Shown in pieces: positions 3,001 through 52,641 of a DNA stretch of 64,000 bases. The DNA comes from Tubiluchus corallicola (taxonomy: Eukaryota; Animalia; Priapulida): assembly GCA_030141605.1 (NCBI GenBank), contig JAQGDQ010000032.1, forward strand, positions 944,056 through 1,008,055. Reading direction: 5' to 3'. The position numbers and the translations under genes were made by a program. Under the pieces are notes generated by a model. It had not been told where the DNA came from, searched no databases, and saw nothing but the letters and a program-made list of their open reading frames with translations. Each line of letters opens with the position of its first letter. Within the stretch, counting starts at the first letter, position 1.

Positions 3001-3979
3001 GGCAAAGACCCAATTGATAAACTGAGCTGCCACAATAGAATATTCTACCACTTTGAGACGCATGTGACAATAGACTGAAAGAGTTCATAACTTAATTTGC
3101 TATGAATAATTAATACAAAAACATTGAAACATAGCATGCGCATTTCACGTTAACTAACTGCATTATTTTCCTCTAGATCATTTTTGATGGCTCGTAGAGA
3201 ACTTCATTAGTTGTCGAGAACGTGTTATCAAAAATGGACAAATTGTGGTATCCACTATAGGCGTGCTTAACATTTAAAAATATTCGCATAGTTGATAGAT
3301 CTAGTTATGCTAGGTGATAGTCCTCCAAACAGTTAGCTTATCAATGCTGTAAAAATAGCCCATTTTACGCTATTGATAAGTTTACTGTTTGGAGGATTAT
3401 CACCTGAAATTATACGTTTAGGTTATAAAACGTACATTATAAGTTAAGAAAAAATAATACGAATAATTGGCTATCAAGGAGCAGAAGCAGAATCACCACC
3501 ACAACCACTACCACCACCACTACCACCACCAACAACAACAACAGAAAAACTTCCCACACAAGCACAAGAGAAGAGGAGCAATAACAAAGCCATTCAACAC
3601 GGACACACTAGAGAGCACTTTTGCTTTGCCAATCTGCCGTTTTTTCGCTTAAATAATACAGCAGACGCTATTATCCATTATTACTACGTAAACGGGTAAG
3701 ACCAACTCTAAAGTGTGAACTAACCTTTAGGCTTTCCGGAGTTGTGCAAGCCCGTGGACACAGTTTGCACTGATACGGCTTCTCTCCTGTATGTGAACGC
3801 AGATGTATGGCCAACTTGCTGGGAAATATGAATGAAGCTGGGCAATAGCGACATTTTAGTCTCTCTTTACGCTGCTGCTGTCCTCTCTCGGGCGTCTCAT
3901 TCGAGGTGTTTCCCTGCTCTTCTTTAAGAATGGAATCTGCCTTTGTCGACTCCTCTTCCTTCGATTCGTTAGAGCTCAT
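1..3979 (-). CDS. Multi-C2H2 zinc-finger protein (about 13 or more fingers), 3' end outside window. Coding exons 3979-3725 and 2400-<1
   Basis: Exon 1 MSSNESK...CRYC...[16 protein letters not shown]...SLK ends at a GTTAGT donor (3724). The ttttttAG acceptor at 2402-2401 resumes in phase 0 with [17 protein letters not shown]. Further fingers read in the large exon include CTLC..HVRVH and CGVC..HSLIH. The exon is absent from the ORF track, consistent with its stop lying outside the window. Confidence 0.93.
3312..3405. repeat. ~94 bp imperfect palindrome (small MITE or hairpin) in the zinc-finger intron
   Basis: Left arm aggtgatagtcctccaaacagttagcttatcaat pairs with right arm attgataagtttactgtttggaggattatcacct around a short loop. 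Confidence 0.8.
3493..3545 (+). repeat. (CAC)n/(CAA)n microsatellite
   Basis: Direct reading. It explains the poly-His/Gln ORF 3467-3652. Confidence 0.85.
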
Positions 3980-9230: not shown

Positions 9231-9473
9231 CTAAAGTTTTTTTGCAAAAGTTTTCAGCAGAGGAATGTTTTCTTTGCAATTTTGCCAGCCTGCCAAACTC
9301 ACAGTTTTCAAGCGATTTCTTGACGGCCAAATAAAATCTCGCGCGATTGAACACTTATAAGTTTTCCAAGAATAGCACTGCTCGGAAAGATGGCCGCTGC
9401 GAGCTTGCTGTATGTTAATAATAAAGAGGCACTCAAGTAAAACGAATGATGCGGTTTTTGACCCAAACTGCAT
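9231..9473 (-). other. Candidate small secreted-protein ORF (80 aa) in a possibly spliced unannotated locus
   Basis: Hydrophobic N-terminus MQFGSKTASFVLLECLFIINIQQARS, then 3 more Cys. Acceptor tttgctttAG at about 9510 and GTAAGT donor at 9629 upstream. No recognisable domain. Confidence 0.3.
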
Positions 9474-11606: not shown

Positions 11607-12320
11607 TTAAATTCTATAACCCCGGGAGTTCAAAAGATAATGCCGGTGGCACTTTCTTCTTACATTGGCGCACATCTTGCGCCTATTTGAGCCAGGTCGT
11701 CTGATAAAGGAAGGTAGATGTTTTTCTTTATTTGGAATGAACTCGTTTTGCAGCTCTTGTTCCGATGAATCAGACATTTTTTTCGTCAACTCAATATTGA
11801 TATTTCCGGCAGCATCCGGATCGGAGAACTCATAATACTCGTCGTAGAACGGCTGCTGCAACTCGTTGAAGATTTCTGCTCTTGACTCGTTTTCATCTAA
11901 ATCTACATTATTGTGATAATCTTCGGGATCATCGGGGTTGATTTTCGGTGCTGAACGCTTAGCTAGTCTCAGTCCATTAAGGTGCGCTTGTTGAAATTGA
12001 TTTAGTCCAAAATTTTGTGGCTTAAGTAATTTTCGTCGAAAACTATCCTTAAATCCAAGTTTGTTGCCCTGCGGAAGAAATTTGGCGCCTTGTTTAGCGC
12101 CATGAAGCAATTGGGGTGCACTGGACATATCTTGCTGAGCTTGTTCTTTCACTTTTGATTTTTCTACAACCTGCAAACATTTCGAACGTATAGCAGCACA
12201 AATTATGCCTCTGCATTCTTTGCTAACTTCTTTGGGGCCTGACGAGTTCTCACACAAAACGCTGGACACGGCCAACAGTAACACAAATCCTGCGCTTATT
12301 TTTGGCAGTAATCTCATCAT
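11607..12320 (-). CDS. Orphan secreted precursor A (237 aa), prohormone/neuropeptide-like
   Basis: Single coding exon preceded by acceptor ttattttcAG (12332-12331). Signal peptide MMRLLPKISAGFVLLLAVSSVLC, basic sites RRK, KR, KK and RRK, and an acidic spacer. Ends MCANVRRKCHRHYLLNSRGYRI*. Confidence 0.88.
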   Translation of the reverse strand: MMRLLPKISAGFVLLLAVSSVLCENSSGPKEVSKECRGIICAAIRSKCLQVVEKSKVKEQAQQDMSSAPQLLHGAKQGAKFLPQGNKLGFKDSFRRKLLKPQNFGLNQFQQAHLNGLRLAKRSAPKINPDDPEDYHNNVDLDENESRAEIFNELQQPFYDEYYEFSDPDAAGNINIELTKKMSDSSEQELQNEFIPNKEKHLPSFIRRPGSNRRKMCANVRRKCHRHYLLNSRGYRI

Positions 12321-15032
12321 GAATCACTTTCTGAAAATAAATGGCAAAACATTGTTTTAGCATTGCATGAATACCGGTAAAAGAATTAAGTACATAAAAT
12401 TGAAACAAAATCGGTAATTATTGATTTATCCTTCAAATATAAACTTTATTAGACCATTTGGGACTAAAATCAGGCAGAATTAAGGTTTCATTTTGTCAAT
12501 AAGCAAAAGCTAGCCACCAAGATATAAATATGAAGAGGGAGGTGTAGAACTAAATCATTTGCGAACAGCTTAGGCTATGCATCTTAAGAGCTTACAGCAG
12601 CACGTCGTCATACCCAAATAGAAAATTGCACATTCATATAGACGATGCTTTCTATTTGACCTTAGGTCCCAACATTCGACGTTCTAATGCCACTACGTAT
12701 TTTCGGTCGCTACTAGTGATCATTTTTTGCCTCTGAGGGTAAAATACGTTTAGTTTATGGTCATAGAAAAAACGTCTTTGTTTATCTTACCTTTTCTTGT
12801 ACACCAATGAAAATGTGTACGCCTGTCCCATCTTGTACACCTGTTTTACTTTTTTATTTTTTTACATAGCTCATACTCAGTGCATTGCAAGCCGGTTTCT
12901 AGGAAAGACTTTTATTATTATTAATTTTTTTAGAGCTCGTTTAAAATCATTACCAATAAAACAAAATAAACATTAAGTTTGCTTAAAACGTTGATGACTT
13001 TGACTAGACTGGAACCAATGCTAATTATGGAGGATAATCGTCTAAGTCTCTGCTACTGCATACACGGAGGTATCTTAACCAAATTCGGATGTATATATAG
13101 CCTCATGAAAGAGATTGTTAAAGATGAAACCACCACAGAAGCGATTTTTCACTGGGTCACACATCCACTTACTAACCAAGCCCGATGTCACTTAAGTTAG
13201 GCATCGCATGTTCACACTGAGTTTTATTATTACACCTTCTTTGTCAATCTGTGTGGTGATGGTAGCGGCGGCGGCAAATGTGACGACAACGATGATGATA
13301 AATTCACAATGCAGGCAAAAATTGCTACTTGTTACTGAATTAATAGGTGTGACATTCGGCATTTTCCACTTACAGGACAAAAAACCCTTTATTTAGATAA
13401 AGGTTTAAAAATTAGTCTTCAAATTTTATATTACTTACAAACTGCCTTATTGCATATAGAGGCTGAGCTACACTAACTCTGTATAAAAATTGTAAATTTA
13501 AATTCCCGTGTTGACTGTTAGACGCAGCCATTTTAATAGTAAGTCATTTGAAAAAGATTTAGATAACATTGTGTAAAATTTGAAAAAAATATCAGAACAT
13601 CCGTAGCACATCCCTTACTAACTAAACAAAAGTTCAAATTACTTAATATTGTCAGTAGCATTAATAATATGTTTTTGATGAACCTGCGGTACACACTGGG
13701 AAATGATTCAGCGGCGTTTTACCAGATGGTGCGAACATTTTAAACACTAAGAATTTTCTTTTGTAGTTACATAAGTCGTTTAAACAGGTTAGCGTAATGC
13801 TAAGTAATATAACTTTGTGTAGAAAGTTTTTAGGATATACTTTAAAATTGCTTGTTCTTCCTCTTTAACAACAATGTAAACATAAAATTTCTAAACATCA
13901 CGTTATCAAAGAGCAATATATCAAACATACACTCGTGCGCATCTAGTTTGTTTTTTTGGCTGATTTCCAAATCAATTCCTTGCATTCAATGGCGTGCATC
14001 CTAAAGTCAAAAATGTTTGCTTATACAGCTTAAAAAGTCGCCAAAGTTTGCAAACTTCTGTAAAGCAATTTTATTGTCGTGCACTAATTATTTTCGCATG
14101 TGCAAATGTCTCAGATGGGTGCAGAAAGAAGAGTTTTACTGAGAATAATATAACAGCTGAACCAAAGTTATACTTTACATGCGTGCGCGCTGATAACATG
14201 AGAAGTTACACACACATAAGATACATGCCCCAAAGACTAACCTTTCAGAAAATACAATCAAAGTAAACGAACTGTTGTTAATGAAATTGAAGACTTTCTA
14301 TTAATTTTAATGTAACACATTAATTTTATCTCATTTAGAAAAAAACAGCACTGACAACTGACTAAATTAATGTCAGCTTTTGACTCTAATATAGTAAAGC
14401 AAGTTTGGCGCATGCGCGCTACAGTTTTTTCGATCTGTCGCATTCTGAAGCCATAAGAAAACGACCTATCAAATAATTTTTGTAGCCTCTGCTCTCTTAA
14501 GAGCTGAAGACAAAACGCCAAACCCGCAGTGCTTGTTCGTTGAAATCTGGTTGAAACATTTGGTTGTTAGTAATACGCCCTCACTAACTGCGAATTGAAC
14601 GTTAGGCCGATTTGAGTAACAGTTGAGACAGAATTTTATAATAATGTATATATAATACAATATAATTAGCGTAAATAATACGATATTTGTTTACCTTAAA
14701 AATTATTCCAGAACACGTGTACATTCTATTGTGTTTAATTAACCTGTACTTCAGCAGTAACCGCATCATTGCTATTTATTGTTCTCTTTCATACATTAAC
14801 ACTCTTATTCATTAACCTGAATAAAGTCAGGAACTTATGTGGATTCAGTAGACAATATATTTATTGATTATAGAATAAAGATTACAGAGTTTTAGGTAAA
14901 ATAATGCATAACAATAATAAACAACATCCTAAGGCTCGCAATTTCTTAGACACAGATAACTCATACAGTATGCAGCACAAATGATATATACTAATATTAT
15001 CCAAGCCAATTTTATTACAGGCACATAAAAAC

Positions 15033-15244
15033 ATTTATAGTTAAAAACAACACAACTTTTTAAAAACTTTTACATTAAAAAATTAGAAGTTAAAATCATG
15101 AAAAACGTTTCGACTAGCTGCTGCTGTCATCATCAGTGGTAAATTTCCACAGCAGCAGGTAGTCGAAACGTTTGGCATGATTTTAAGTTTTAACTTTTTA
15201 ATGTAAAAGTTTTTAATAAAGTTGTGTCGTTTTTAACTATAAAT
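15033..15244. mobile_element. ~210 bp palindrome made of two inverted Penelope-like pseudo-LTR fragments containing a hammerhead core
   Basis: Arms atttatagttaaaaacaacacaac...cgtttcgactagctgctgctg and cagcagcaggtagtcgaaacg...gttgtgtcgtttttaactataaat are near-perfect complements. The minus strand reads CTGATGA-T-GAC-loop-GTC-GAAAC. Confidence 0.7.
15099..15141 (-). ncRNA. Minimal type I hammerhead ribozyme motif (probably degenerate)
   Basis: cca-CUGAUGA-u-GAC(agcagcagcua)GUC-GAAAC-GUU. The stem I partner UGG survives only in the opposite-arm copy (gaaacgtt-tgg). Confidence 0.55.
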
Positions 15245-15257
15245 ACTAATATTATGT

Positions 15258-15385
15258 AATGTTATGTTATGTTATGTTATGTTATGTTATGTTATGTTAT
15301 GTTATGTTATGTTATGTTATGTGTGTGTGTGTGTGCGCGCGCGTGCGTGCGTGCGTGTGTGCGTGCGTGCGTGTGCGTGTGTTTG
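15258..15385 (+). repeat. (TTATG)n followed by (GT)n/(GTGC)n microsatellites
   Basis: Direct reading. Confidence 0.95.
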
Positions 15386-15662
15386 TGGGTGTATGTATGT
15401 ATATATAAATATATTGAACTAGTCCAGTTTAACTGCTACTCTCACCTCATGTGCACTCACAAAACATCCTGGTCGCTTTAGAGAATTCTGATGGGATACT
15501 TTTGCTGAATACTACTGTGAAAAAGCTTTTTGTCTTTGTATCAAAGTCCACATGAGATTATCACTCCTGTGAGACTTCGCATATGAATGCAGTGATTCTA
15601 AAAAATTTATCACTGCTGCAAATGCTTTACATCAAAAAGTAATAAACTACATTACCGCTTAC

Positions 15663-16015
15663 CCTGATTCAATTTTATTGCTCGTAATCGTGTCAATGGT
15701 AATATTGAAACTAATGACGTCACCACGGTACTTTCACTGTGCTTTCGTAATGTGTGCGTCTTCATTGGGATTCTATGCTATTCTATCTAATTACACTTTG
15801 TAGTTTCACGAAAAATATTGGCGAATATTGGAAAGTATTTACAATCGGCTCCGGGGGTTGTTTGGTTTTACATCTTGTCGTAAACAAAGCAGAATTTGGC
15901 AAAAGTGGGAGCCCATGCAAGCGCACGCAAAGCTGATTGGACGCAGAAAAGTGATGCTCACAATCTGGCTTCACTTGTGAATCCCGCGAGGAGAATTTAT
16001 AGCGGATATTTTATA
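15663..16015 (-). promoter_or_regulatory. Candidate promoter and non-coding first exon of precursor A, with a full CRE
   Basis: Minus-strand TATAAAA at 16015-16009, GG|GTAAGC donor at 15662, TGACGTCA at 15715-15722. The link to gene A is inferred. Confidence 0.35.
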
Positions 16016-19000
16016 TGAACTTGGAAGCATTTTATGTGGTTAAGGACACTAAAGTTACTTTTTGACATCTACTGAAAAGAGGCGTATATACATGACATCC
16101 GGTAATGCCAAGAATCATTTCTGATCTACAAGTATTGGTTCCTCAGTGACCCAGTCAACAAATCAACAGCACATTCTTTTCATTAGTAAACACTAATTGA
16201 TATATTGACTAAATATAGTCTATCATTACACAAATTTACCCTAAAACCCTATTACGCAGTTCGAATCATGTGTAAACGTACCTTTAGCTCATATAAGCTG
16301 ATTCCAACGACGTGGTGCACTCTGAAAACATTTAACGTATGAAGAAAATAATTAGCTAACAACTATGTTGTTTCAACACATCAAATGTGAGTATATTACT
16401 GAAATTAATTTTGACAAATGGGGGAAAGAGTTTGTCTATTTGGCACAAGGTCTCAAGTTCGAATCTTAACTTGTTAACAAATTCTTAAAATATGTGCTTT
16501 TTATCAAAAGTTTTAGTTTTATCATTTAGTTTAAGTTATTAGAAATACTGATATTACAAATAAAGACATGGCAACCGTATACCCTACGTAGGGAAAGCAT
16601 ATACCCTTGAGTTCGAACTAGCTATCGCTCTTTTTCGTATTTTAAGTTCTTTTTATTACACGTGAACAAGTGAGAAGATAGCCGATTGTTTCAAATCAAT
16701 TGAATTAATGATTCACCTGCAAAACATACACGGGTCATTTGCCTAATAATAATAGACATGAGAAATCTTTGCTGGTAAATATATGGTAGGCAGTTAAATC
16801 ACTAGCCTATAACGAATAAAGTTGCCGACCTTTAACTCATATTGTTTTAATCAAACAACTGGTTTATTCAATAAGGCCTATAGTTATTCTTAGGCAATTA
16901 CAGAATAATTGGTCGGATCTCTCTAATGGCTGCCTTTGAACAGCATGATCTCTACTCCAAATGACTAAAGACCAGACGGTGCATAAATGAATTCTCCAGA
17001 AGCCAAATGTTATTTAATGAAAAATGTCGCACATCTTTAAAACAGAGAGGATGAACGGCTAAAAGTTACGGTTAAATTACGAATCCCCTCCTTATGCTTC
17101 CACGAACCAGCCGTGATAAATGACACACATAGATGTCAAAGATCATTTATCAAAAACGCTGATATTCTCAAACTAACAAAAAATGACGGCATATTATATT
17201 TCTTCGAAAAGCTTGCATTTTAGAATAAACTACATAAAATGTCTTTGCTAAATCATAAAATTCACTTTTTCAAAAATCTTGTACTTTTTGAAAAAGGCGT
17301 GCTGAACTCTTGCAAGTAATTATACTTTTTTCAGCAATAAGCGATTCTTGGGCTCAGTCAGCGCGTATAAATGAGTGACTATGATCCACGTAAATGGGTG
17401 ACGATGGCTTGTCACAATTAGATACCTTCTTTGTTTTTGATCATGTTATTGAAGTGCATTTAATCTTTGACATCGCAGCCTTTTATTAATTTTCACATGT
17501 TATTTATAGTAAAAAGAACAGAGACCAAAAGTACGCAAGCGTTATAACTCCGCAATCGGTGGGTTCATTGAAACAAAGGTAGGGTTGTAGAAGTTGACAG
17601 TTTAAAATGTGGGTCACATTCTACTCAAGTTGAACGTGCGTTCTGCTTGGGCTGTTGTGAGTTGCTCTGTAACTTCTGTTGCCGGAGAATAGCACGGTTG
17701 CCTCACATCATTGGTGTTCAAGTGCAAACTTTAGGAACATGAATTTATTATTGTGATTTCCAGGATATAATTGATAAAGCGGATTAAATCTGAGGAAGGT
17801 AAACTTTTGCAGTTTTGTTTAATCCTGACTTGGAAAATGATGACACTTTTAGTGCAGACTCTGCTTTTCTATAGTGACATGATTTTTATTTCATTGACGT
17901 GTTCATTATAGACATATATATATATATATATATATATACCTACGCAAAAGCTAAGGAAACTTATAGATAACAGCTGGCTAACAAATGTTACAGATATTAT
18001 ACAGTTACTTAAATTGTAGTCGGCAGAAAGAAAAGTTTCAAATTTTTAAGTCATGAAACTGCATTGCAGCAGCAATGATTCGTAAATCGTCTCAATACGA
18101 ATTTTTGTTTGAAAATCTTGCTAACTCCACCTCGACCATCCATAAAAGAAACACATAATGTGAATGGTACAATCACCGCAGTTAGCAAAACAAATGCAAC
18201 AAATCAACTGGTTGTTGCCTATCAATTAATCTACGCAACTTTGAAAAGATCACTGATATCTTTAGGTCTACTATGGCGGAACAAGAATAGCCTAAGTAAT
18301 TCTTTCTTCTGCCTTCTGTTAAGTTTTTAAACGCCCACATCCAATCGACTTTATAATGGTTTTCTGCATTGCTTTCTGATCTCGATAATTATAGCATTTT
18401 GAATTTGCTTTAAGCTAATGAGCGGAAATTCGCCAATAGTTCGAACAGTTGCATAAACTTTGCCAATTATCAGTGCTTACAATAGCTAATTAATACTGTG
18501 ATGCTGTTCTTTGTATTGCGAAATTTTGAAAATCCACAAACATCTTGATCAAACATTTTTCAACGTGTGATAGCTTGAGTGCGAGAGACAGTTATAATCG
18601 TGATATAACAATGGTTGTCTACTGAAAGAGTTATTATGCAGTAAAACCATTGATGCTTTAATAAATCGCTGTAGCTTGACGTTACTTCCTATATGCTGAA
18701 AACCAACACGCGTGGGCGCACCGACTAAACTTTGAGGTTAATAACATTTAGATGGTAATAATAATTATGCTACAATAGGTATTAAATTAATGTGTTTGCT
18801 TTTGCATGGCGCTCGAGTTTTTGAGTTTCTGCATTATTACATTAATTTGCCATTATTGTTCTATCCGAGAAGAGACAGTATGGCTATCTACAGGTCTGTA
18901 AAGAGAAAAATGGGATAATATTTAATCTTTATACTAGCTCCGTAATCTTACAACCTTCGATAGCAGTTTATATCGCTACTTAATTTAATAATGAGAAAGT

Positions 19001-20107
19001 TTATTCATCTAACATTTTAGACAAATATAAAAATGCACCAAAGACGGACAAAATTAAGCTACATACGCAGACGATTGAGTTGACTAGTGGAAAACTGCAT
19101 AATACATTTGCTACTTCGTACTTGTGTACACAAAACCTGTTTACTTTCTTTTTTAAATTAGCTGTGCTTAGGGTCTTCTTTATTTAAAGGCCGTTAACCT
19201 GCGATACAGAGAGGCTCTACTACAAACTAGACTAATGTTTGTTGAAACACTTCTTTTTGTTCAGTACCGCTATTTTATAACATTTATGAAAAAATTTTCT
19301 GTACTAAATTTGTATATCCTGCCATTTTGTTATTATTGTTGTTATTGTTTGTATTGCGGTAAGAAGATTATTAGAAAATCAATTTTGAGCGAAAAATAGT
19401 CACACCAATGTGGAATGGGCTACTCAAACTTTTCATTTTTGCGAACCTTGTTGAACCCGTAGATAAATGCTAAACTCAGACAACCTTCGTTAAAACTTTA
19501 AGAAAAATTATTAAAATGCTTGGAAACTTGTAAAATACTATTTAGTAGACTAGCATCTCTAAATTAAAATCCTAAATAAAACAATCCTAATGTTAAAAAT
19601 ATGTTTCAATGTCAAACCAAACTCTCCAATGAAACATTTCTAGACCAAACTTGTATTTCCGGATGCAATACAGTGTGAAGTGGTCTACAAATCACGTGTA
19701 CATAACGGATCACCTGTTTAATTATACTAATTAACCTTTGCTAGTTAATCCGGAAAAACACGCGCTGCTGCCCCATGGCACAGTTTTTTAACAATTGCCT
19801 TTCATTGTGCAGTAAATTTGACTATTCTCAACGGGTATGAATACAAATTTGTTTCTATTACTTTGATAACATCAGTTATTCCCAACAGCCTTAGAGGTTA
19901 CAGACACAGGAATCAAATTTTATAGGATGTTTTCATATAAAATACATTATGTGGTGAATGCATACAGTAAAATCATCAATTATAGAGCTTAAAATAAACG
20001 TGTGCTCAATCTTATTCAGCTACTGAGTTATTTTCTCTTCTGATAGCTACAGGCTAGATATCGCTTATTGGATTTTTTCCTGATCAGACCCTCACCAAAG
20101 CCCTATT

Positions 20108-20437
20108 GAAGCTTGGACATAATATGTGATGTTCAGGTACGGAAGTCTGTTAGGGTGCCATTGATATATGTAGTCTCTAGGGAACTCTTAAATGACCCTC
20201 CAAAATAGCCTAGATCGAAGATAAGAGGTACCAGCTCATATTGGAGCTCGTATTTGCTAATGACAGACATTTTGAGTGGCATCGAGTGCCTGCTAGACGA
20301 TAACATCTACATTTTATATCTTATCTTCGGTCTAGGCCATTTTGTGTGGTCCTTTAAGAGTTCCCTAAAGACTACATATAACAATGGAGCCCTAGCAGAC
20401 GTCATAACCTGAATATCACATATTATGTCCAAGTTTC
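20108..20437. mobile_element. MITE / foldback element with ~115 bp terminal inverted repeats
   Basis: cttggacataatatgtgat...cctagatcgaagataaga is mirrored by tcttatcttcggtctagg...atcacatattatgtccaag. Confidence 0.85.
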
Positions 20438-21467
20438 TTAGATGACATAACATTGCTATCTTGCTCGATCGATCTGTCTAATCATTATACACAGTCGTAC
20501 TTCTTTTTCCGCTAGTGGATGTTTGTCGACAACGGTTGTTGGGTATTAACTAACACAACCCATTGTAGCAGCATAAATGATTGCCTAAAAACCTTTTATC
20601 TTAAAGTACTCCTTATCTTAAAAAATACAATTTAAAGACAACAAGTCCCGGCTTATAAAATATACTAAAATAGTTTGTTAGCTGTGAATACAGGCGGGGT
20701 GAATGCAAACTACGGGGACAGGGCCGACAGCAGACTCGCTCTTCAAAAGGGTTGACCTTGTTGAACTGTAGTGCTATGTCGCCCCAAGAAGTATTCTTCA
20801 ACCAGCGACGTTGTGACAAAGTTTGTTGAATTACCTGCCTTAGGCATGACACAGTTAGGTAAATTCAGTTTACTTCCTCGACTGTGTCTTAGCTGTTGTC
20901 TGCTATCAGTAATTTGACTATAGCGCGGATGTCACAACGAAGAAATTTATTTTCTTTACTGTAGTAATATTTCACTACACATCATAAATATGAAGCAAAG
21001 CAGATCGTCTGAAACGACTCTTTATAGCTATATATTTATGTATAGATATATGTGATATATCTGTATATGTATATCTGTATATATAATAAAAATAAAATGA
21101 CTACAACATTTAGTTAGTATTGAATTAGTTGGAAATAAAGTTGGAAAATAAAATCCATTTGTTTAATAAGTTTAATTGGTTGAGTACATAATTGGTTCGG
21201 TAACAAGTTTAGGAATAAACTATCACATGTGCAGCACGATTGTGAAGTACCCCAGCTAGTACACTTCTACTAAACGAATAGTCCGCATGAACCTAATCGT
21301 TGTGTTAGCGTGTGTGCGTGTGTGTACATGCGAGAGTGCGTGAGTTGGCATCAAGATAAAATATACTCTCTGAACGTGCAGACTCTATCTGCATAAGTTG
21401 CAAGAAGAACTTATGATAAAACTTGCAAAATTTTCTTACAGAAAGCGACATAATTCTCTAGGCTAAA

Positions 21468-30910
<9,443 letters not shown>

Positions 30911-32345
30911 ACAGTAGTGTTGCTAATGTGCGTTTTCGCTGTGTGAATCATGAATGCTATATTTTGGAATGTGAATGAGCCTTATTGCGCTTCAAAATTC
31001 TTACAGTCCTATTCCCGTAACAGAAGAATGGAAAAACAGATTACAAATGATAATAATCTACACTAAAGATGTTAAGAATGCAACTGAGAAAAAGCAAAAG
31101 ATAACTACTGAGCTGGTCCCTGATTAAGTTATTTTTGTAAATAAGCGTGAAAACGATTGAAATAAAGTTTTATAATTTAATATTCGTGTTAAAAACGCTA
31201 ATGGTTTTATTGGATTAATAAAATATTTATAAATTGTTGTGTGATGTAATATGATGTAATTTGTTCACTGTAAGAGTCTGTATACTTGTTACAGTAAAGA
31301 TTGCGTGAGTAAACAATTAGCGCATAAGCATGCTAGCGAGTAATGATACTGAATCATTTATGTAAATAATTATGTCTTTGACAGTGTCATATTTTATCAA
31401 TAAAACGTAATAACAACATATTTTATGATTTGAGCTTTAAAGTTTTAATAATAGGTAATCATTGGTCTCCTTCGCGAATTGAAAGAAAGAATAATCTCTT
31501 GCATAAAAATGTTACTACGATTTGCGTATAACCTGTGTGCGTGTGTATGTGTGTGTGTGTGTGTGTGCGTGCGTGCGTGTGTGAGCACGTGCGTGAGCGT
31601 GTGGATAATCACTTGATTGGTGGAAAAGGTCGAGAAATATAATCATCTACAAAAATAATAATAGTAAAAGCATTGTGCTAGTATAAATTTTAAGCACTCA
31701 CCCAATCAATTATAAGTATATTAGTCAGTAGTAGTTTGTTACACATTACCGAGAGGACCTATTATTATTGTTTCTAAAAATTAGTTTTAGTTACAGAGAT
31801 TATATTTGGCCATCTTCTTTTAAATAGTTGTAACTATATCAAAATAGTTCAAAATACTTGTCCAACAGCTGTACAAGAAAGGGCAGCCACTTCGCATGCC
31901 AAATTTTAAACCTACAGCATTGTTGAATGATGCTGACTTAAACGACGGGAAGTTTTAATTTTTAATAAATATTTTCAGAAAAAGATGTTAACGCCATTTT
32001 TAGACTATCAGTGTTTAAGAGAACTAGTTTCTTCTGATAACAGAACTAAAACGTTAAAAACGTTAAGGGCGCTCAACTTTGCGGCGCAAGGTATCTCCTC
32101 AAATCCAGCATCATTTTATTTTGTAGAACAGTCACTTCACCTTTTTCAATAATTCTTTTTACTAGCACAATTCATGATAAGAACACACTAGCTGTCAATA
32201 CAAAATAATGTTATAGGACGCTTAATTTTGTTAATGAGTTTAATTACGCATGAGCCTAGGTTGGGTAGCTAGTCGAACAGGTTATTCGTGTCTTGATATT
32301 TGATATTAAGTACACGAAATAGTGAGAAATAGTTTTTGTACCGAT

Positions 32346-33252
32346 CAGGGGCGGATTAACCATTAGGCTAATAAGGCTATAGGTTTAGGCCCTAAATTTT
32401 GACAGGCCTTCGGAATCCAATTAAACAATTAACTTTTAACCAATTAAACAGAGACACAATGCTATTTTAGCGAACATCATAACAAAATTATTTAAACTGA
32501 ACACACGAAATATACGGATATTTTCTTTTTCTTTTTATACATTGCCAGTAAGCACTTGCGTGATTTAGCTTATATTGTGCGCAAAATAGACCCATAGACC
32601 CACATTAGACACAAATTGTTTACATCAGATCCACACACTTAAACGCAGGATATTCTGCCACAAAACACAAGTGGTGTTATACGCAATTTGGACTGCGTCT
32701 GTTTGGACACAGGTAATTTGGGCTCAAGATATTTTGAACAAACAAGTTATTTGGACACACAGACAATTTAGACACATGAATTCGACTGCTGTAAGAGTAG
32801 GTCATTTAGACATGTGCAGCATATTTCTCGTTATCCAACGATTTAGAATCGTCATCAGAGGCAGCCTCAATGACAAACAGTAACCCTCTTTTTGGTTAAC
32901 CAAGCCGAAAATGCATGACAAAAAAATCATTCTATTCATCACAAGTAATGATAAAGGCTGTTGATAAGGCTATGCAAAAACTGAAAAACCTGTCCACAAT
33001 ATTATTAATAGTTTCCGAGACGTTTGATGACAATCTGACCTGTGCACGAGTCTGATATTTTGCTTTTAAATTAATATTTAACCAAATACATGTAGATAGT
33101 TTTATGCTGACATATACCATGATACCATGCAAATAAATTTCAGGATCCGCTGTACAGCACAGTTTTGGATGTTGAATTGTGCATAGCCTGTACGTTTAGG
33201 CCTTACGTTTGTTTGACAGCCTTAGGCTCGTGAAACCCTTAATCCATTCCTG
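32346..33252. mobile_element. Non-autonomous hAT-like DNA transposon
   Basis: Imperfect TIRs caggggcggattaa / ttaatccattcctg, 8-bp TSD gtaccgat / gttccgat (7 of 8), and internal short repeats (tttggacac, ttagacac). Confidence 0.75.
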
Positions 33253-33818
33253 GTTCCGATTCCGTCATAGTTCTTAGTAAAACAGAGGAAAGAAAGAGAA
33301 AATATGTTTCCTCGTCTAGGTAATGTTCTGAAAATGTTCTTCACTTGCTTTCCAAATGAGCTGTCTAGTTACCAGTTTAAGAGTCTTCGTCGGTTTCTTG
33401 TTTTCGCCCCTTTATGCGAACGTAACGAAGTCAATAAACTAAAAATGTATTCATTTAAATCTATCACAGTTCCTAGTATGAAAAATGCAAACGAAATTTG
33501 TTTTTTAAATTATCATAAAAATTTGATTCTAGCGATGAGCATTTAGTAAGTAAGCCTACGGAAAGAAACGAAACTTGTAAGATAAGATAATAGTGATTAG
33601 CATTATTCACCAGTCAGTATGCTTTGCATTAACAAACAACAGGCGACTAAATACTCCTAATAACGAGTTTGTCTTATTTTTCTCTAAATTGAATCTAAAT
33701 ATAATTTTTAACTGAGCGTTATTGTCGATGTAATTTGCCTGAATTAATTTAACGACAGCCCGTTATTACTACATTATTTGAAACTGTAATCAAGTTTGTA
33801 TAGAAAATTTAAGACATT

Positions 33819-34394
33819 CTAAATTCTGACTCCTCTGCTGCTTAATAAATAATGAAGGTCTTTGCTAGGTATGACTGCGCAACGTTTGGTCTTTGGCATA
33901 CATACCACACCAACAACATCCTCATCCTTGGCGTCAAATTTCAGCTTGCTGCGTACATGTTTGGGCAGGTTCTTTACGGGAACAAGCTTCACATTGGTCA
34001 ACTGCTCTTTTCCTAGATTTTTCAGCGGACCTAATAGCGGTTTGCGGGATGTTGAGCGCAATGGTTGCTGCTGTGGGATGCTATGTGCCTTGTTTTTAGA
34101 AAATGCTGTGCTCATCAGTTTCATCAACAAATCTGTAGATATCTCCCTTGGCTTCTGCTTTCTGCGAGTTTCTACTGGCATATGCAAATTATTTTGATCC
34201 CTCACCGCAGTGTCGTATTCGTCTAGTCGCCGAGGACGCCAGCCAACATTGTAAAATCCATCAATAAATTCTTTCAGGTACTGATGTAATTCATCCTGGC
34301 CTTCCGTTATTTGTTTCGGTGATTTATTTTCCCGAAAGAAACTTTGTGCATTTGTTAAGGCTAATGAACTGGCCAGAATTAGTAAAAAGGACAT
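33819..34394 (-). CDS. Orphan secreted precursor B (191 aa), related to precursor A at its C-terminus
   Basis: ATG directly follows acceptor ttttttgttttcAG, so a few upstream codons cannot be excluded. Signal MSFLLILASSLALTNA, furin-type RPRR, plus RRK and KR. Ends CMPKTKRCAVIPSKDLHYLLSSRGVRI*. Confidence 0.88.
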   Translation of the reverse strand: MSFLLILASSLALTNAQSFFRENKSPKQITEGQDELHQYLKEFIDGFYNVGWRPRRLDEYDTAVRDQNNLHMPVETRRKQKPREISTDLLMKLMSTAFSKNKAHSIPQQQPLRSTSRKPLLGPLKNLGKEQLTNVKLVPVKNLPKHVRSKLKFDAKDEDVVGVVCMPKTKRCAVIPSKDLHYLLSSRGVRI

Positions 34395-35344
34395 CTGAAA
34401 ACAAAAAACAATTTATATACGTTAAATGTTTACAGCATTACAAATATTGCATGAATGTATCATTTGCTTTCGAAAGCATAAAACAAAAACGCGAAAAGGT
34501 TAACGAATAAAAATCGCTCAGAAAAAATACTCAGTTGTAGTAATCACAGAATCTGTAGAAAAGATAACACTTTGATATCAATCTACCGAACGTTTTACAG
34601 TTTTACAATGTTGCCCAGCCAAGCGCACTTCTTTCAACTGCTCGAGTTGGTAAACTTTCCCGATTGTTATATGTTCCGATAGCAAATGCAGCAGATATAC
34701 TTTTACTAAAATTACATCACTACTATAAACAATAAATAGCTTTACTTCCACCGATTAAAAACGTTATCTGTGGCTTCGAGATGTTTTTGGTCGCCACGAA
34801 TGCTATTGTTTTCAAACTGAAAGGCAGGAGAATAAAAATCGTTGAACTCTCATCAGTTTTTGCGTCGGAAGTTGACACATCTTAAGACTTAAGTTGAGTG
34901 TGTGTCAGCGGAACGCACTCTAATATTTGTTTACGTTAATATAACAGAAAAACGTTTGCACTTTTTACTATCATTTTCTACTAAAACACGTTTAACAGTT
35001 TTCATTTGAGCATTGTAGCTGATTTGATAGTTCAAATTCAAATTGGTGTCCTACGTTGTTATTTTCTCATTGTGCAAAGCACACCCTATATAGACCCGTT
35101 TACTTGAAATGAGATTACTTTTTAGGCAATTTGGTATAGTTGGAATTTGTTGGTGTCGTTGGAATTTGTTTTAATGCGTAGTTAAAAGATAGCCGGAATT
35201 GGCACAAGAACTACTATAATCGTAACAGTGAGACAGTTTACTCTGCCAAGAAGGGATACAGTCGCTACTTGATTTTTTTTGGAGTTAGGCGATTTTGTTT
35301 TTTATTGTCTAAAACAAATTGCTAGTGCTTTTTTCGTCTTCCCA

Positions 35345-35722
35345 GTCCAGCCCCTCTCTCTCTCCCTCCTCTTTCTCTCTTTCTCGCTCTGTCTCTATCC
35401 CCTCTCTCTCTCTTTCTTCCTATTTCTCTGTTTCTCTCTCTCTTTCTTTGTGTCCCTCTCTCTCCCTCCTCTTTCTCTCTTTCTCGCTCTGTCTCTATCC
35501 CCCCTCTCTCTTTCTTCCTATTTCTCTGTTTCTCTCTCTGTTTCTTTGTGTCCCTCTCTCTCTTTTCCCTCTTTCTTGTCATTATTCCTTTACTCCCTCC
35601 TCTTTCTCTCTTTCTCGCTCTGTCTCTATCCCCCCTCTCTCTTTCTTCCTATTTCTCTGTTTCTCTCTCTCTTTCTTTGTGTCCCTCTCTCTCTTTTCCC
35701 TCTTTCTGGTCATTATTCCTTT
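35345..35722 (+). repeat. CT-rich complex tandem repeat (about 3 units of 100-140 bp)
   Basis: Unit ctccctcctctttctctctttctcgctctgtctctatccccctctctc...tttcttcctatttctctgtttctctctc recurs three times. Confidence 0.9.
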
Positions 35723-38075
35723 GCAGCTTTGTAATAAATTAAAGAGAAAGCTGGATTCAAGATTACTTTAATAATTAAATAATTTAATAATAATTACAAC
35801 GGTGTGTGCTTTCAAAAAAATAATACTGCGACTGCAATGAATTTGAAGTGAACAGGGTAAGCCTACATGGTCTTTATCTTACTGCTATCGCAAACTATTA
35901 TGTATAATCTCGCTATTGCTAACTGACCTTTTTAACGCCACATAATATTTTTGCTATCGGATCGTTATTTTTGCTACATGTGAATCAAAAATGATTATAT
36001 TCTTTTGCACAGAAATTGTTAACATCGAGTACTATAATGCTGAATCATCTTAGATGCTTACCCAACCCGTAGGCCCTTAATTGATTGGTATATTATTTAC
36101 GGGTGCAATACATACGTAGGGCAACGCTAACAAGATAATTAAATTGTCTAGAATTATCTGACTCTGTCATTTAATTAGAATTATTATCAGTAATCTATTA
36201 TGGGTAACTTTTGTACCGAATTTGGGCGAATTTGCAAGTTCTGTGTAAAATGTCGATGATGACGATAATAATGACCATGACGATGATCATGATGATGACA
36301 GCAGTGATAACAACAATGAAGTTGGCATTGTGTGTAACATTATTTTTAAGTCCGAAATAGTAAAAAATATTTGATGATGATGATGACAACGACGATAATG
36401 ATGATGATAAGGGTAATGAGGAGAAGAAGAAAAAGAAAAAGAAAAAGAAGAAGAAAGAAAGAAATTTCAGTTGCCAATAGAAATTTTGCTATATTTGAAA
36501 GACTATCACGTTGAACGATTCTCGAAATCGCTCAGCGAGAATTCAATCTTCTTACTCGTATTAATGATTATGAAGCCCAACATTAATTCACGCTTAATAA
36601 CTGCTTGGGGAGTTTGGGACATTCAAACGCAGGTGTAAGATCAGTAATAAGATTTTCCGCACAGTACATATGCTTGATTTGCGGCTCCTTCAGCCCCGAT
36701 AAGGCTTAAACTGATAAGCAAAACTTGGGATTATATGATGGTTTTTCTCAACCAAGTGGGTGACTGCGTTTTTAATAAAACCTTTTGTCTGTTTTCGAAA
36801 TGTTGTTTGACTTGCTTTTGTTGAAAGTAAATTTAGATATCAAAACAGTGGATCTTACGTTTTCAATGATTTTTCAAATAAGTATTTTCGATAATTGTAC
36901 TTTACTCTGCAGCTAAAGTAAAGAAAGGAACATGTAACGGAAAGCAAAGGAATTGGAAACTTCACTAATCCTTTTAGAAGAAGTTTGTCTTGACCAAAAA
37001 ATGATTGCGGAACAAATTGTGAAAACAAATGCTTTTTGTTACACGCTACAATAATATTAGCAACCAGACAAATGCGTGTATAATAAAGTAGTATTTATTA
37101 AACTAATTAGGAACTTAAACAAAGAAGATCAGAGCAGCATGACAGTGTAGAATGCAGAACACTCCTAAGCAATCACCAAGATTTTTGATCTACACAAACC
37201 ATATCTATGGTATTGTTACACTTTTGATCGATGATTTCAAATTTTTTTAGGAATTCCCTTTTTGTTGTTGTTGTGCAGTCCAAACTTAGACAAATATAAA
37301 ATCTACACCCTTATAATACAGCTATGCTCCTAAACTGTCTTTCCTAAAAAGAGACTGTCTTAACTAAGGCCAGTGGCCGTACACGATAAGGGGCTACAGT
37401 TCGGAAAACCGATAACTATATTTTTATAGTTAAAACCAATTTCCTATTTACTGATGACAGCTTTCCTTAGGGGTGTGCGAACCGTGAAGGCAACTTAACG
37501 GGTCCGAAAATTTAACAGAAATTTATCATTGACGAAGTAACATTCATTTTTCCTAACTTTCACTTTATATCTGCATATTAGCTTCGTAAACAGATCATAA
37601 TTAAAATATTTTCGTTGCTTCTTATTTCACTTAACCATGTATATTATATGCTTAAATTTTTATGTTTTGCGTTCATTCATATACTGCAACAATCCAATAT
37701 TAAGTATTGAAATTAATTTAGTTTTTTTCATATTTACAAACTTTGCCTTTTGTATTTTCTTTTGCTAAATGCTTCATTTAAATTAAAATATCCTGTAATT
37801 AAAAATTTTTAGGCCTCTTTGAGAGAATTTATAATAATAAAGTAATCAGTAGTAATAGCCTTTTGGCAGTTTGTTACGAGTGCACTTGTACAGTTTACTG
37901 TACTTGTTAAAGTACAAGAGGGGGGTACCTGCAGTAAAAGAAGTTTAAGAAAAATCGCCTTGAAAATATATTACTTTAAAGCAATTTTATGCACATATCG
38001 TACTCGCGTTAAACGGAATTTTTGTTTGTTTTCTTTTTAAATCTCCTGCAATGCTACTTCGATGGCGCCATTACA

Positions 38076-38545: not shown

Positions 38546-40279
38546 TGAGTGGAGTGTTTTTTGTGTTTTTTAAAACACAGTGTTTTTTAAAAAACATAAA
38601 ACCTTATTTATTAGATAATATTAATTATTTATAAAATATTAAATAATATTAATTATTCATTAAATATTAAATATTTAAAGAATATATATTATTTTATATA
38701 TAGTACAACTGAACCCATATATTTTTTTAATTTTATTATAGGCGTCTTCGCTGGCATTTTTCCTTGTCTATATATTTCGTTTTATGTACACTCGAATAAA
38801 AAATGGTTTATATCAGAACAATGTAATGACAGAAGAATGGAGTATTAAAAACGAGGAAGTAGTAACGGGTGACTAATATTCTACAAAGTTATTAATTTCT
38901 TGTTGCAAGGAAGGACGCACATATTTAAGAAACCACATTTTTATTTCTATAAAAATAATCATATAAATTTAAAATTAACTTACGATTTCGCTTAATTTAA
39001 ACATAGAGAAGCCCACTCTCGTCTGAAACATTATAATCGTTTTTTGCAAGTCTCACAAGTTTTCGAACGCGTGTATCACCGACAACTAGGCTTGAAGATA
39101 GAGAAATCATTTAACTGGTGCAAGCGTAACGTACTACCCAATATCGATGATTCAAAGGTGACGTAATATCCACCTGCACAAAATACGCAAAGCGCACAAA
39201 GTGCCGAGTGGGTTGCTACAATAAATTAGTCACGTGCCGATCCAGACACCGTAGTCTAATGCACATGCGCAAACTCACATTAAATCAAAGCGAATTAGGA
39301 AAGGAACTACGAAGGTGGATCATCGTGGTTGTTGCTTATAAATTACTGTTTCTCGAATAACTTAGTAAGACTAAAATTATAATTCTTTGCATCATTTTCC
39401 TTTTATGCTATGCAAAAATAATTGGTACACTGTAGATGTAAAAAAATCTGCATATAGAAACCAGCACTTGTGAAAATTTGTGAGCTAAAAATTTTCGGAA
39501 AAAAATAACAGAGTTTTAAGAATACTATTTATTGTCTGCTGCTTACTTTTGTTATTGGTTGGTACAAATAGCATTAATATCAAATTTCTAATAAGTACCG
39601 TATATTTTGACAGATAGAGTGAGCGACATTAGCTCAAGATACCTCGACAGAAAACGTCATCAGTCGGATCATAAAATTTTCACGTGCAGGCGGTATATTG
39701 TCCATGTCATAATTGTAATTACTGTCATTAAAACGCAGACGTCGTAAACTGTGCTGTGCGTAATAAATAAATAACAATCAATTAAATAAAGTTACTGCTC
39801 GTATGATTGACTGCGTGTACCTACTATACTGTATCCCTCGGTGCGGCATTTGGGGATGATAGGGCCGATAGGCCGTTGTCACCTGATCTGCGAAATTCAA
39901 TTTCGAAAAAGAAAACTGAAATTTGGCTTTTGTGGTAAATAGGAGAAGTTTTACTGTGGTAATTCGTACATACTTCCTAATATACCTAGACTTAGTATGT
40001 CTATTCATATTATTACGAAGGTAGACAGCTTATATAGAAGAATGTGTCCCCTGAAAACATTTGGAAATGTATTTAAGAGTTTTTAAACCGAATCCCCAGT
40101 TAACCCGAATTCCTTAACTTTGTGAAAAGTCCCGAAGGCCTGCCTCTGCTGCCAGCTAAAAAACAAATAAATCCAATTATGTCTTTAGTTTTCATTCTTT
40201 TCTGGCATTTTAGCAAGACATATCAATAATTAAACTCGAAATTATGGGGTGTTTAGTGCGACTGGACGTTATTTGTGTT

Positions 40280-40880
<601 letters not shown>

Positions 40881-42043
40881 AAAAAGAATTGTGTTTCTGC
40901 TACGACCTCAGGCAGTCAGTTATAAGCGGAATGAAAATTGTGCGTTTTCTTCGGAAACTGCACACTGTATAACTGAAAACACTGAAAAATAGGTTGCCTG
41001 ATCGTATAATCGTTATTTATTTACTTGACCTTGTTTTTACATTTGAGCATTAGCTCTCTGACTAAAATAACAAACTATAACAATGATGATTTATAAAAGT
41101 TATTCTAACGTTTTATGCATGCAGTTTTGCTGCTATCAAAAATAAGCGCATACCTATGAAACTAGCAATTAGTATTACAAAAAAATACATAGTAGTATAA
41201 CACGTATAGAGTGTACAGAGTGAACGACGAAACGACACGCAGAAAATGACGCAAACTATTATTAATACAAATTGCATTTATATTTATTCACGTAACTATA
41301 TTTATATTTATACACTGTAAAAATATGCAAATATACGAGAAACAAAATTGTATCTATAACTTTGTTGTACCATGATCATTTCCACTTTGGCATCTTTTTC
41401 ATGTGCTTTTCAGACGTAATTACTAACCTGTAACTAGGTAGTTCACACCGTTATTTTCCGTCGTAAAACCAACTACGTGTAGTTTCTATCATTTAACCGA
41501 TATATGCTTTTCTTTGACTTTAGAGTACATGAATTCGTAAGTCGCTTGTTGGATTTTGTCCAAATACTACATAAATCAAAACAACCTCTTTCGGATTTGA
41601 ACTCACATTCATTAGGCCCTGAACTGATGATGATGATGATGATATGAATGATGGTGATGGTGATGGTCTTTTCAGCGGCGGCGGTGGTGATGACAATAAT
41701 GATGGTGATTGTGAATTTATGAATGATAATAGGATAATAACGGTGATGATGGTTTTTATCGTCGCATTTGTCATCATCATTGCCATCAAGCGCTGTATAT
41801 GAGCGTTATTCAGAAATTTTGGTAAATGCACATGTAGCCCGATCGCAGAGCAAACCATTATTATTAGAGTTTATATCGCAGAAATTGTTGTTAATTGTTT
41901 AATCAAAACTTGGACATAGCAAAGTCTTCTTTTAAATTAATTACACTTGCACAGCTATCTGTCTGAGAATTTAGCTGCTAACAACATGAACAACAGTCAA
42001 AAATTGCCTATAACGAACAACAAGCGAGCTTCACGGTGCTCAT

Positions 42044-49782: not shown

Positions 49783-50886
49783 TCAATAGGAAGTGCGAAT
49801 GTGCTGAACGTCTTCCTCACTAGTATCATTTCTTTCGTTTAGTAAAGCAGTCCGTGGATCATCAGCATTGGTAACACTGTTATTTGCATTTGATGAAGAA
49901 CATGCCATGCCATTCAGTTCAATGTCAGTTTTATTCTGTGCTTGAATGATTGACTGCAGATTAGCCAAACTAATGTTCAAGTCCTTGAATGCATGCAACA
50001 GAAAAATGGCTCCTATGATTGTGAAAAATCCGCAAAAGTTTCCAAGTATATCCTGTGCTTGAAGTAAACCCCATTCTTTGAAAAGTATTACAGATGCAAT
50101 TATGGTGAATGTTGTAAAGAACACATAGTATATAGGTGATACAACACTAGTGTTAAAAATGTCTAAAGCACGATTAAGATAATTCATCTGCACTGAAATA
50201 CACAGTGCCACTGCAAACACGAAAAAATATGTCAGGGGGTTATACAATTCATTATTAGCACCCGACAAAGTCTGTATAATTGCTATTCCTAAACCTTTGC
50301 ATCCCATCACAGATAGGGAACCAACAAGAGAACAAATAGTAATATATATTAATATATTTTTCTGTCCGTAACGTGGCCCATAATAGAATATTAATACTAA
50401 CGATATAACAATTGCTATAAATGCGTATGTGATGAATGCTGGATCAATTAGTTTATAAGCCAATTCACGCATGGTATCTACTGTACCTTCTTTAGGTGAA
50501 TGGATGATGATTACTGTGGCACCAACTACGCACAAAAAGCAACCAAGCTTTCCAAGAATATTCAGTTTTTCATCTAGAAACTTTGATGCAAGTATAGCAC
50601 TGACCAGAACGCTGAGAGCTCCCAAAGGAGTCACCAAGGTAGCAGGTGCAAACGCATATGCTGCAAAATTAGCAAACTCCCCAACTGCCATCATAATTAG
50701 TCCAGTCCACCATAACCACTCTTTCAAATAGGCATATCCGCCGTGTCCTGCTCTAGCACTGGATGTTCTTGAGACCCTTAATAGACCCTTTTTCTTTATT
50801 ATAAAACTTGAACCAATAAAAGCACTGGACGACACAGCGAGAGATAAACCAATGTAAAAATTCTTGAGATCAGATGAAGTCGCCAT
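49783..50886 (-). CDS. NIPA2: Magnesium transporter NIPA2-like (DMT/EamA superfamily), intronless CDS, 367 aa
   Basis: Family motifs [70 protein letters not shown] and [27 protein letters not shown]. Confidence 0.95.
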
Positions 50887-52520: not shown

Positions 52521-52641
52521 AAATCTTGATTCCTCAATGCCTGTCATACAGTAGTACATTGTTATCTGTGGATTTGATGACATAATTGTTACATTTTTAT
52601 CCCATAGGTAGCGCACTAAACACTGCAGCAAATATAAACAA

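Follow-up and report, generated by a model that had tools for sequence, protein, structure and literature searches.

The locus described here raises a simple question: are two genes for predicted secreted proteins, 22 kb apart on the same strand and alike in little besides their last 11 residues, the precursors of a peptide-hormone family of their own? The genes, termed A and B, lie at positions 11607–12320 and 33819–34394 on the minus strand of a 64,000-nucleotide stretch from the priapulid Tubiluchus corallicola (assembly GCA_030141605.1, contig JAQGDQ010000032.1, positions 944,056–1,008,055), referred to throughout as ‘the window’. We propose that A and B are old tandem paralogues that release non-amidated C-terminal ligands of 20–22 residues acting on one shared receptor, and we give this reading about an even chance of being correct. 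An initial annotation, made from the DNA letters alone, had proposed a family of this kind; it missed a segment at the N-terminus of B that resembles neuropeptide F (NPF).

Two predicted precursors and one shared C-terminus

The features on which the argument depends are the following, all on the minus strand. Those of gene A are:

11607–12320: gene A, a predicted secreted precursor of 237 amino acids in a single coding exon (open reading frame, ORF)
12331–12332: splice-acceptor-like AG, 10 nt 5′ of the ATG of A (sequence; predicted splice only)
12252–12320: predicted signal peptide of A, approximately residues 1–23 (hydropathy peak 2.8 at residues 12–22)
12177–12215: three-cysteine cluster of A (C36, C41 and C48), absent from B (sequence; predicted helix, pLDDT 74–77)
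11739–11936: acidic spacer of A, behind the KR site at 122–123 (net charge −2 to −5 per 20 residues)
11610–11675: predicted mature peptide of A, residues 216–237, behind RRK, containing C217-x6-C224, net charge +6 (from the basic sites)
11610–11642: shared motif in A, HYLLNSRGYRI then stop (six-frame search)

Those of gene B are:

33819–34394: gene B, a predicted secreted precursor of 191 amino acids in a single coding exon as far as seen (ORF)
34395–34396: splice-acceptor-like AG abutting the ATG of B (sequence; predicted splice only)
34347–34394: predicted signal peptide of B, residues 1–16 (hydropathy 2.6; a cut after A16 fits the −3/−1 rule)
34227–34346: NPF-like segment of B, residues 17–56, ending in the furin-type site RPRR (34227–34238), with no amide signal (class-motif score)
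33837–33986: small predicted strand–hairpin–helix module of B, approximately residues 137–186, with C165 and C172 on the two hairpin strands (single-sequence AlphaFold2)
33822–33881: predicted mature peptide of B, residues 172–191, behind KR, net charge +2 (from the basic sites)
33822–33854: shared motif in B, HYLLSSRGVRI then stop (six-frame search; no replacement change in run X2, described below)
33662–33818: likely 3′ untranslated region (UTR) of B (the same X2 contig carries the last codons)

ORF and six-frame searches bear out the initial annotation on the positions of the two genes, on their quoted ends, and on the identity of nine of the last 11 residues up to the stop codon. A search of all six frames of the window gives two occurrences of the motif HYLL(N/S)SRG(Y/V)RI-stop and no more, and tblastn finds no third copy there. 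Anchored at the common end, nine matches in 11 have a binomial tail of 7e-10 for one pair (per-residue match chance 0.0625). BLASTP of A against B gives E = 9e-4, confined to the last 25 residues. A local-alignment shuffle test, which is milder because it ignores the shared end position, finds the score of 53 reached by 15 of 3000 shuffles. Ahead of the motif, as the initial annotation judged by eye, the proteins do not align: with the last 11 residues removed, the score of 36 compares with 32.6 ± 5.4 for shuffles and is reached by 24.8% of 2000. Five of the nine identical motif residues are specified by different codons, including Leu (CTT/TTA), Ser (TCC/AGC) and Arg (CGG/AGA), and blastn detects nothing significant between the two loci. 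These codon switches, together with the lack of DNA likeness, show that the match was kept at the level of protein; they exclude a recent copy or conversion and indicate long selection on the peptide.

The genes also resemble each other in plan. Each has an acceptor-like AG just before its ATG, within the 0–10 nt claimed earlier, and among the 20 signal-like ATG starts listed these are the only two loci that do. In A, an in-frame stop sits between the AG and the ATG; in B the ATG abuts the acceptor and no such stop intervenes, so an upstream coding exon is possible. The initial claim of one coding exon per gene therefore holds for A, and for B as far as its sequence can be followed. The sequences 5′ of the two ATGs share a run of 11 bases, but this match lacks significance, being equalled in 17.9% of 2000 shuffles. 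Signal peptides, also claimed earlier, were judged by hydropathy and the −3/−1 rule, and fit in both proteins (in A, cuts are possible after residues 17–28); neither protein has another membrane segment. Same strand, same exon plan and a separation of 22 kb together suggest paralogy.

The flanks of the genes differ in detail. Several AATAAA/ATTAAA-type hexamers occur on the 3′ side of A. Behind the stop codon of B (33019–33818, and to 1.5 kb) there is no AATAAA or ATTAAA, and only variant hexamers are present, at +367, +402 and +712. Upstream of A, at 13340–14007, lies a high-copy repeat, where the depth of sequencing run X1 rises to ~3400 compared with <26 in its flanks; X1 is possibly the window's own source, and thus not independent support. 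Downstream of A, an ORF of 80 codons (9231–9473, minus strand) has a hydrophobic N-terminus, lacks an acceptor, a Pfam match and the motif, and is probably not a gene.

Constraint on the motif in a relative

Run X2 is an RNA run of a relative, ~12% divergent from the window where aligned. Over 11,552 bases of the window it supplies four pieces: one inside ORF A, one in an exon of the ZP-domain gene that lies between A and B, one covering the end of B and its 3′ flank, and one of 37 bases. The run contains spliced RNA: the ZP-gene contig follows the window as far as a splice donor (29382), and its remaining letters agree with the exon at 30654 at 26 of 30 positions (counted by eye). An RNA origin for the pieces of A and B, and hence transcription of both genes, is likely.

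The contig over A (12087–12222) covers part of the pro-region and differs from the window at 16 of 136 letters; eight of the 16 differences are listed, and six of those eight are replacements. The contig over B (33662–33890) has 27 differences, of which 20 are listed: 18 in the 126 bases behind the stop versus two in codons 179–191, both synonymous. Those codons contain ~31 replacement sites; at the rate seen in the UTR they should have acquired 4.4 replacements, and they have none (Fisher p = 0.025). Of the preferential conservation of the C-terminus that the initial annotation looked for, the part concerning B is thus seen, its motif being unchanged in X2; the motif of A falls outside X2 coverage. 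With that exception, none of the three outcomes that the initial annotation named as refuting its proposal was encountered.

Predicted processing sites and the cysteine register

Dibasic sites occur in both proteins. Those of A, among them KR 122–123 and RRK 213–215, are dibasic only; B has KR 170–171 and a furin-type site, RPRR 53–56 (R-x-K/R-R), so that the ‘dibasic/furin’ sites first attributed to both precursors include a strict furin site in B alone. Neither protein has a Gly-dibasic amidation site, and both end R-I-stop. The three cysteines in the predicted N-terminal helix of A bring the mature chain to an odd number (five), and one of them may therefore bond to another chain.

The initial annotation counted as shared a C-x6-C whose second Cys follows a basic pair. 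It is present in both proteins, with loops ANVRRK in A and MPKTKR in B, but the second Cys is two residues from the motif in A and eight in B, and equal spacing would arise by chance with a probability of ~0.07, which makes it weak evidence. BLASTP, MAFFT and explicit scoring all favour another register, in which Cys217 of A corresponds to Cys172 of B (53 versus 38 with four flanking residues, 48 versus 44 without), although two sequences are too few to settle the matter. In this register both proteins read: basic cluster, (M)CA, x, aliphatic, x, x, K, then the motif. The two C-x6-C loops are thus probably not equivalent, and the natural products would be A 216–237 and B 172–191. A Cys pair near the start of the mature peptide fits A, where RRK is followed by M-C-x6-C; B has no dibasic site before C165.

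From these features we infer the following course of events. A and B would be exported by their signal peptides, and prohormone convertases would cut behind RRK in A (213–215) and KR in B (170–171). This would release peptides of 20–22 residues, both starting (M)CA and both with a free acid end. The last 11 residues would bind one shared receptor, most plausibly a G protein-coupled receptor, while the leading Cys may close a loop in A, or tether the peptide of B to C165. The remainder of each precursor drifts fast, and cleavage at the furin site of B might yield another peptide, resembling NPF.

Several observations weigh against this proposal. In the AlphaFold2 model, the KR of B lies within a folded module, at the turn of its hairpin, and a mature product of greater size would then be more likely; the peptide of A contains further basic pairs (221–223), so that a shorter cut could occur. 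The constraint test concerns 13 codons of one gene in one relative, and the numbers are small; the contrast between the end of B and the pro-region of A in X2 is not significant (p = 0.09), and the listed differences are incomplete (seven of 27 on the B contig and eight of 16 on the A contig are unlisted). Because the X2 pieces of the two genes cross no intron, they could be DNA in an RNA library. Finally, no orthologue was found in other animals, Priapulus caudatus included, by searches too blunt for an 11-residue match.

Searches for homologues and folds

No homologue was found for A, or for the C-terminal part of B used in the large searches. For gene A, 5.8 billion proteins yielded 190 candidates, none at E ≤ 1, and 1.84 billion representative proteins yielded none at E ≤ 0.001; for residues 150–191 of B, the search gave no candidate sharing three words. 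Such searches are too blunt for a match of 11 residues, and their blanks do not show absence. Pfam returned nothing meaningful for A and B, whole or in parts, and no hormone family at E ≤ 10 for the C-terminal pieces or the N-terminal piece of B; the PDB, searched by sequence, gave no meaningful match either. A degenerate DNA pattern for the motif had no occurrence in viral contigs and one in metagenome contigs, out of frame in a bacterial-type ORF of 394 codons. The motif was not found in the open-access literature searched: of three papers matching strings from it, the two listed were unrelated, and S-R-G-x-R strings in the accessible portions of the supplements of PMC8557429 and PMC3890597 belong to unrelated passages. 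In agreement with the initial annotation, which recognized no named family and no Gly-basic amidation signal, these searches assigned neither A nor B to a named family.

Structure prediction adds little. Among ESM Atlas clusters, the nearest consist of secreted or neuropeptide-precursor-like proteins, at scores of 0.76–0.84, which are below the useful range and a lead at most; one, si:dkey-12l12.1, near both proteins (0.80–0.83), led nowhere. AlphaFold2 models made without an alignment are of low confidence (pTM 0.32 and 0.22). Only residues 137–176 of B reach pLDDT 78–88 over 40 residues, as strands and then a helix; A shows no such module, only helix (pLDDT ~60). With the B model, Foldseek found nothing at E ≤ 0.001 and VIA-align nothing at Z ≥ 5.

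Comparison with known peptide systems

The closest parallel in architecture is ELABELA (Toddler), a vertebrate ligand of the apelin receptor, which is itself known from vertebrates; its precursor is much shorter than A or B. Like the predicted products of A and B, ELABELA is a C-terminal peptide without an amide, and the second member of its Cys pair comes immediately after a dibasic site. ELA-11, which begins at that Cys, is active, an example of an active peptide arising from this arrangement (Table 2 of PMC8484864). Counted from the C-terminus, L-x-S-R falls in register with A and B, and three of the last eight residues match (PMC8484864). ELABELA differs in having C-x4-C and in ending Pro-Phe-Pro, and its similarity to A and B is not significant; the PDB, searched by sequence, gave no match at E ≤ 10. 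We regard the likeness as analogy rather than kinship.

C-x6-C spacing is common to A, B, the allatostatin-C (AstC)/somatostatin-like peptides and CCHamide. The loops ANVRRK and MPKTKR lack the aromatic-aromatic-[S/N]-P core of Caenorhabditis elegans NLP-62, NLP-64, NLP-67 and NLP-71, and the conserved part of A and B lies 13–19 residues beyond the second Cys; an AstC identity was rejected for want of the core. CCHamide carries an amidated His, absent in A and B. We take NLP-83 to be an elevenin and NLP-59 to be allatotropin-like. Gene A has C36-R-G-I, but not the C-x8-C ring with F-A-P plus C-R-G behind the signal peptide found in NLP-83, and an elevenin identity was dropped. An allatotropin identity likewise fails, because S-R-G-[Y/V] in A and B runs on as R-I-stop and not as Gly-basic. 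NLP-59 and a beetle allatotropin end [S/T]-A-R-G-[F/Y]-G-basic (PMC8764417, PMC8557429). NLP-41 has F-x-L-x-S-R-x-V-R-L where B has Y-x-L-x-S-R-x-V-R-I (five of 10 identical), but that stretch follows its signal peptide immediately and is free of Cys, and NLP-41 was absent from all nine parasitic nematodes examined (PMC8764417); we take the match as coincidence.

Protostome calcitonin-type peptides resemble A in that a basic site is followed by a peptide with a Cys pair close to its start, and they resemble both proteins in their C-terminal halves, where H-Y-L and L-[N/S]-S occur. Nemertean members have D-L-Y-H-Y-L-N-S before an amidated Pro (PMC8557429), and in AjCT1 of a sea cucumber a C-x6-C is present, its second Cys being as far from N-S-R-G as the second Cys of B is from S-S-R-G (PMC12638048). 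The Priapulus calcitonin is reported in the NP-HMMer preprint to be markedly shorter than arthropod ones. The type has a C-terminal amide, usually on Pro (PMC12638048); A and B lack both the Pro-amide and the N-L-G-G-H ring, and are shorter. On the calcitonin class motif, B scores 5.5 and A 6.5 of 19, which is at chance (reached by 2647 and 1320 of 3000 shuffles). A calcitonin identity was disfavoured on the missing Pro-amide and the chance-level score. Each of the families compared fails a defining feature, mostly amidation, and for this reason none was adopted. Partial matches to so many families are themselves a warning.

The NPF-like segment of B

Residues 17–56 of B match nine of 13 class positions, with one insertion, when the classes are read from six NPF precursors (that of Priapulus included). 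This score was reached by none of 20,000 shuffles, or by two of 20,000 with RPRR held fixed, and neither 120 real proteins nor the window's five remaining frames gave a score above 6.5; since the motif was built after the likeness had been noticed, and many families had been eyed, the true odds are perhaps a hundredfold weaker. Gene A matches four of 13 positions and has no NPF-like part.

A peptide of 36–40 residues next to the signal peptide is a feature that B (residues 17–55/56) has in common with NPY and NPF and that A lacks. The likeness comprises 39–40 residues directly behind the signal peptide, the strings E-L-x-x-Y-L and V-G-(W)-R-P-R, and a predicted helix. At the end of vertebrate NPY and PYY, H-Y-[L/I] and the penultimate Arg are in register with the C-terminal motif of A and B (PMC8557429). 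Unlike NPF, B has no RF- or RY-amide (Gly plus basic site); its segment ends RPRR-L-D, and 135 residues with the new motif come after. Of the conserved Y, L, Y and I of the NPY/NPF helix and the two N-terminal Pro (PMC7314547), B has a fitting Y39 and one N-terminal Pro, the others fitting only as conservative changes or by shifting the gap. Pfam and the PDB give the segment no support.

NPF genes have a phase-2 intron in the Arg codon of RF/RY (PMC7314547). The ORF of B is open at this point, and carries there a weak GC donor-like site, one of two donor-like sites in its first 260 bases; no acceptor followed by an F/Y-G-basic exon occurs on the minus strand of the window. On its sequence B is not an NPF; it may have descended from an NPF gene. 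A bolder possibility, which we think improbable, is that B represents a new peptide family arising from an NPF gene: the NPF-like helix would have been kept, the RF-amide lost by read-through of a decayed donor at the diagnostic intron position, and a new C-terminal ligand gained, which alone would have been retained in A. The pair would then be a family of unamidated ligands with an orphan receptor, in an ecdysozoan that evolves slowly.

Alternative explanations

The alternative that survives best, though we consider it unlikely, is that A and B come from a known neuropeptide family and have diverged strongly within it, as a short, de-amidated calcitonin type, an allatotropin type, or, for the N-terminus of B, an offshoot of NPF. 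The short Priapulus calcitonin, the nemertean H-Y-L-N-S, AjCT1, the ends of NLP-59 and allatotropin, and the position of B 35–56 beyond NPF shuffles all point in this direction. They are set against a calcitonin score at chance, the lack of Gly-basic and terminal Pro, blank Pfam and PDB searches, and the missing NPF part in A.

Somewhat less probable are two others, which we rank together. According to the first, the mature product is a larger cytokine-like module (B ~119–191, with C165–C172 stapling the hairpin, and the basic C-terminal helix of A), and the 11-mer is its receptor-docking tail. The pLDDT of 78–88 for B 137–176 is consistent with this, as are weak structural neighbours that include chemokines (e.g. 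IP-10: Z 2.9, rmsd 3.2, 45 residues aligned). The tool itself, however, counts values of Z < 4 as noise for this part, and chromodomains are placed equally high; A has no such module, and models made without an alignment are unreliable (pTM 0.32, 0.22). According to the second, the motif marks secreted proteins of cuticle, gland or matrix, and serves them as a tag for sorting or assembly or as a protease decoy, rather than as a ligand. Both ends have R-x-x-R and then one residue, a minimal convertase-like site that would free nothing of use; the genes flank a ZP-domain matrix gene, and both proteins are basic (pI 9.3 for A, 10.0 for B). Yet neither has repeats or a matrix-like composition, the chains are split up by dibasic and furin sites in the manner of prohormones, and the ZP gene is on the other strand, where adjacency shows no link.

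That A and B are precursors of antimicrobial or defensive peptides is more doubtful still. The candidate peptide of A, at +6 behind an acidic spacer, has the layout of defensin-type precursors, in which such a spacer stands before a cationic peptide. The candidate of B, however, is only +2, and in antimicrobial precursors it is usually the pro-region that is conserved and the mature peptide that evolves fast, whereas here the mature end is conserved and the pro-region is fast; exact conservation to the last residue also suits a binding pocket better than a membrane. Last, convergence of two unrelated secreted genes on one receptor, for which apelin and ELABELA, with a common receptor and little sequence likeness, provide a precedent (PMC13197934), would explain why nothing else aligns, but it or simple chance is very improbable for neighbouring genes of the same strand and exon plan with a binomial tail of 7e-10.

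The genomic neighbourhood

The ZP-domain gene (21715–30910, plus strand) lies between A and B on the opposite strand. It is multi-exon, with a large Pro-rich exon and a C-terminal hydrophobic segment; its ZP-C exon (25986–26186) matches Pfam PF00100 at E 2.7e-6, and its splice from 29382 to 30654 is backed by X2. One leader exon upstream of B may be spliced to the coding exon of either A or B, which would nest the ZP gene in an intron.

At 49783–50886 (minus strand) is a NIPA2 magnesium transporter, a single ORF of 367 codons with no coding introns (Pfam E 2.8e-128). A FastTree of the best 120 matches, midpoint-rooted and with every row retained, groups it with two Priapulus caudatus proteins (support 0.991), to which its identity is only 64–65%; by this one gene the animal is likely a priapulid other than P. 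caudatus. Head to head with it, ~1.7 kb away, are exons on the plus strand (52612–61280) that presumably encode a major-facilitator transporter, judged by eye; a single-exon Pfam search of them found no match. An F-box protein at 42044–43342 (minus strand, single exon) shows a weak leucine-rich-repeat signal, and a C2H2 zinc-finger gene at 1–3979 (minus strand) has an exon of at least 800 codons that runs off the start of the window. Long microsatellite tracts of two- and three-base units (28220–28590, 35270–35770 and 40230–40990) yield spurious low-complexity ORFs. Exact-sequence look-up of five window proteins in a protein collection found none of them present. The GC content of the window is 31–40% by 2-kb bins; that of the genome is given as 35% for T. 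corallicola and 45% for P. caudatus (PMC10280001), and the former is the better fit.

Significance

The prepropeptide architecture of A and B is familiar. What is new is a candidate ligand family, with two members in one lineage and a sharp motif of 11 residues. The NP-HMMer preprint describes the cataloguing of priapulid neuropeptides with profiles of arthropod families (46 profiles), an approach by which a family without arthropod members is missed by design. The motif offers a probe for other priapulid, kinorhynch and loriciferan data, and the two short peptides, made synthetically, could be used in receptor screens. Should the family be confined to one genus, it would join the many orphan peptides of animals that are restricted to a single lineage. 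If the NPF-like part of B is real, it would show how a long-established precursor gene can give rise to a new ligand. And if the family reaches beyond this lineage, it would add a signalling system to early Ecdysozoa.

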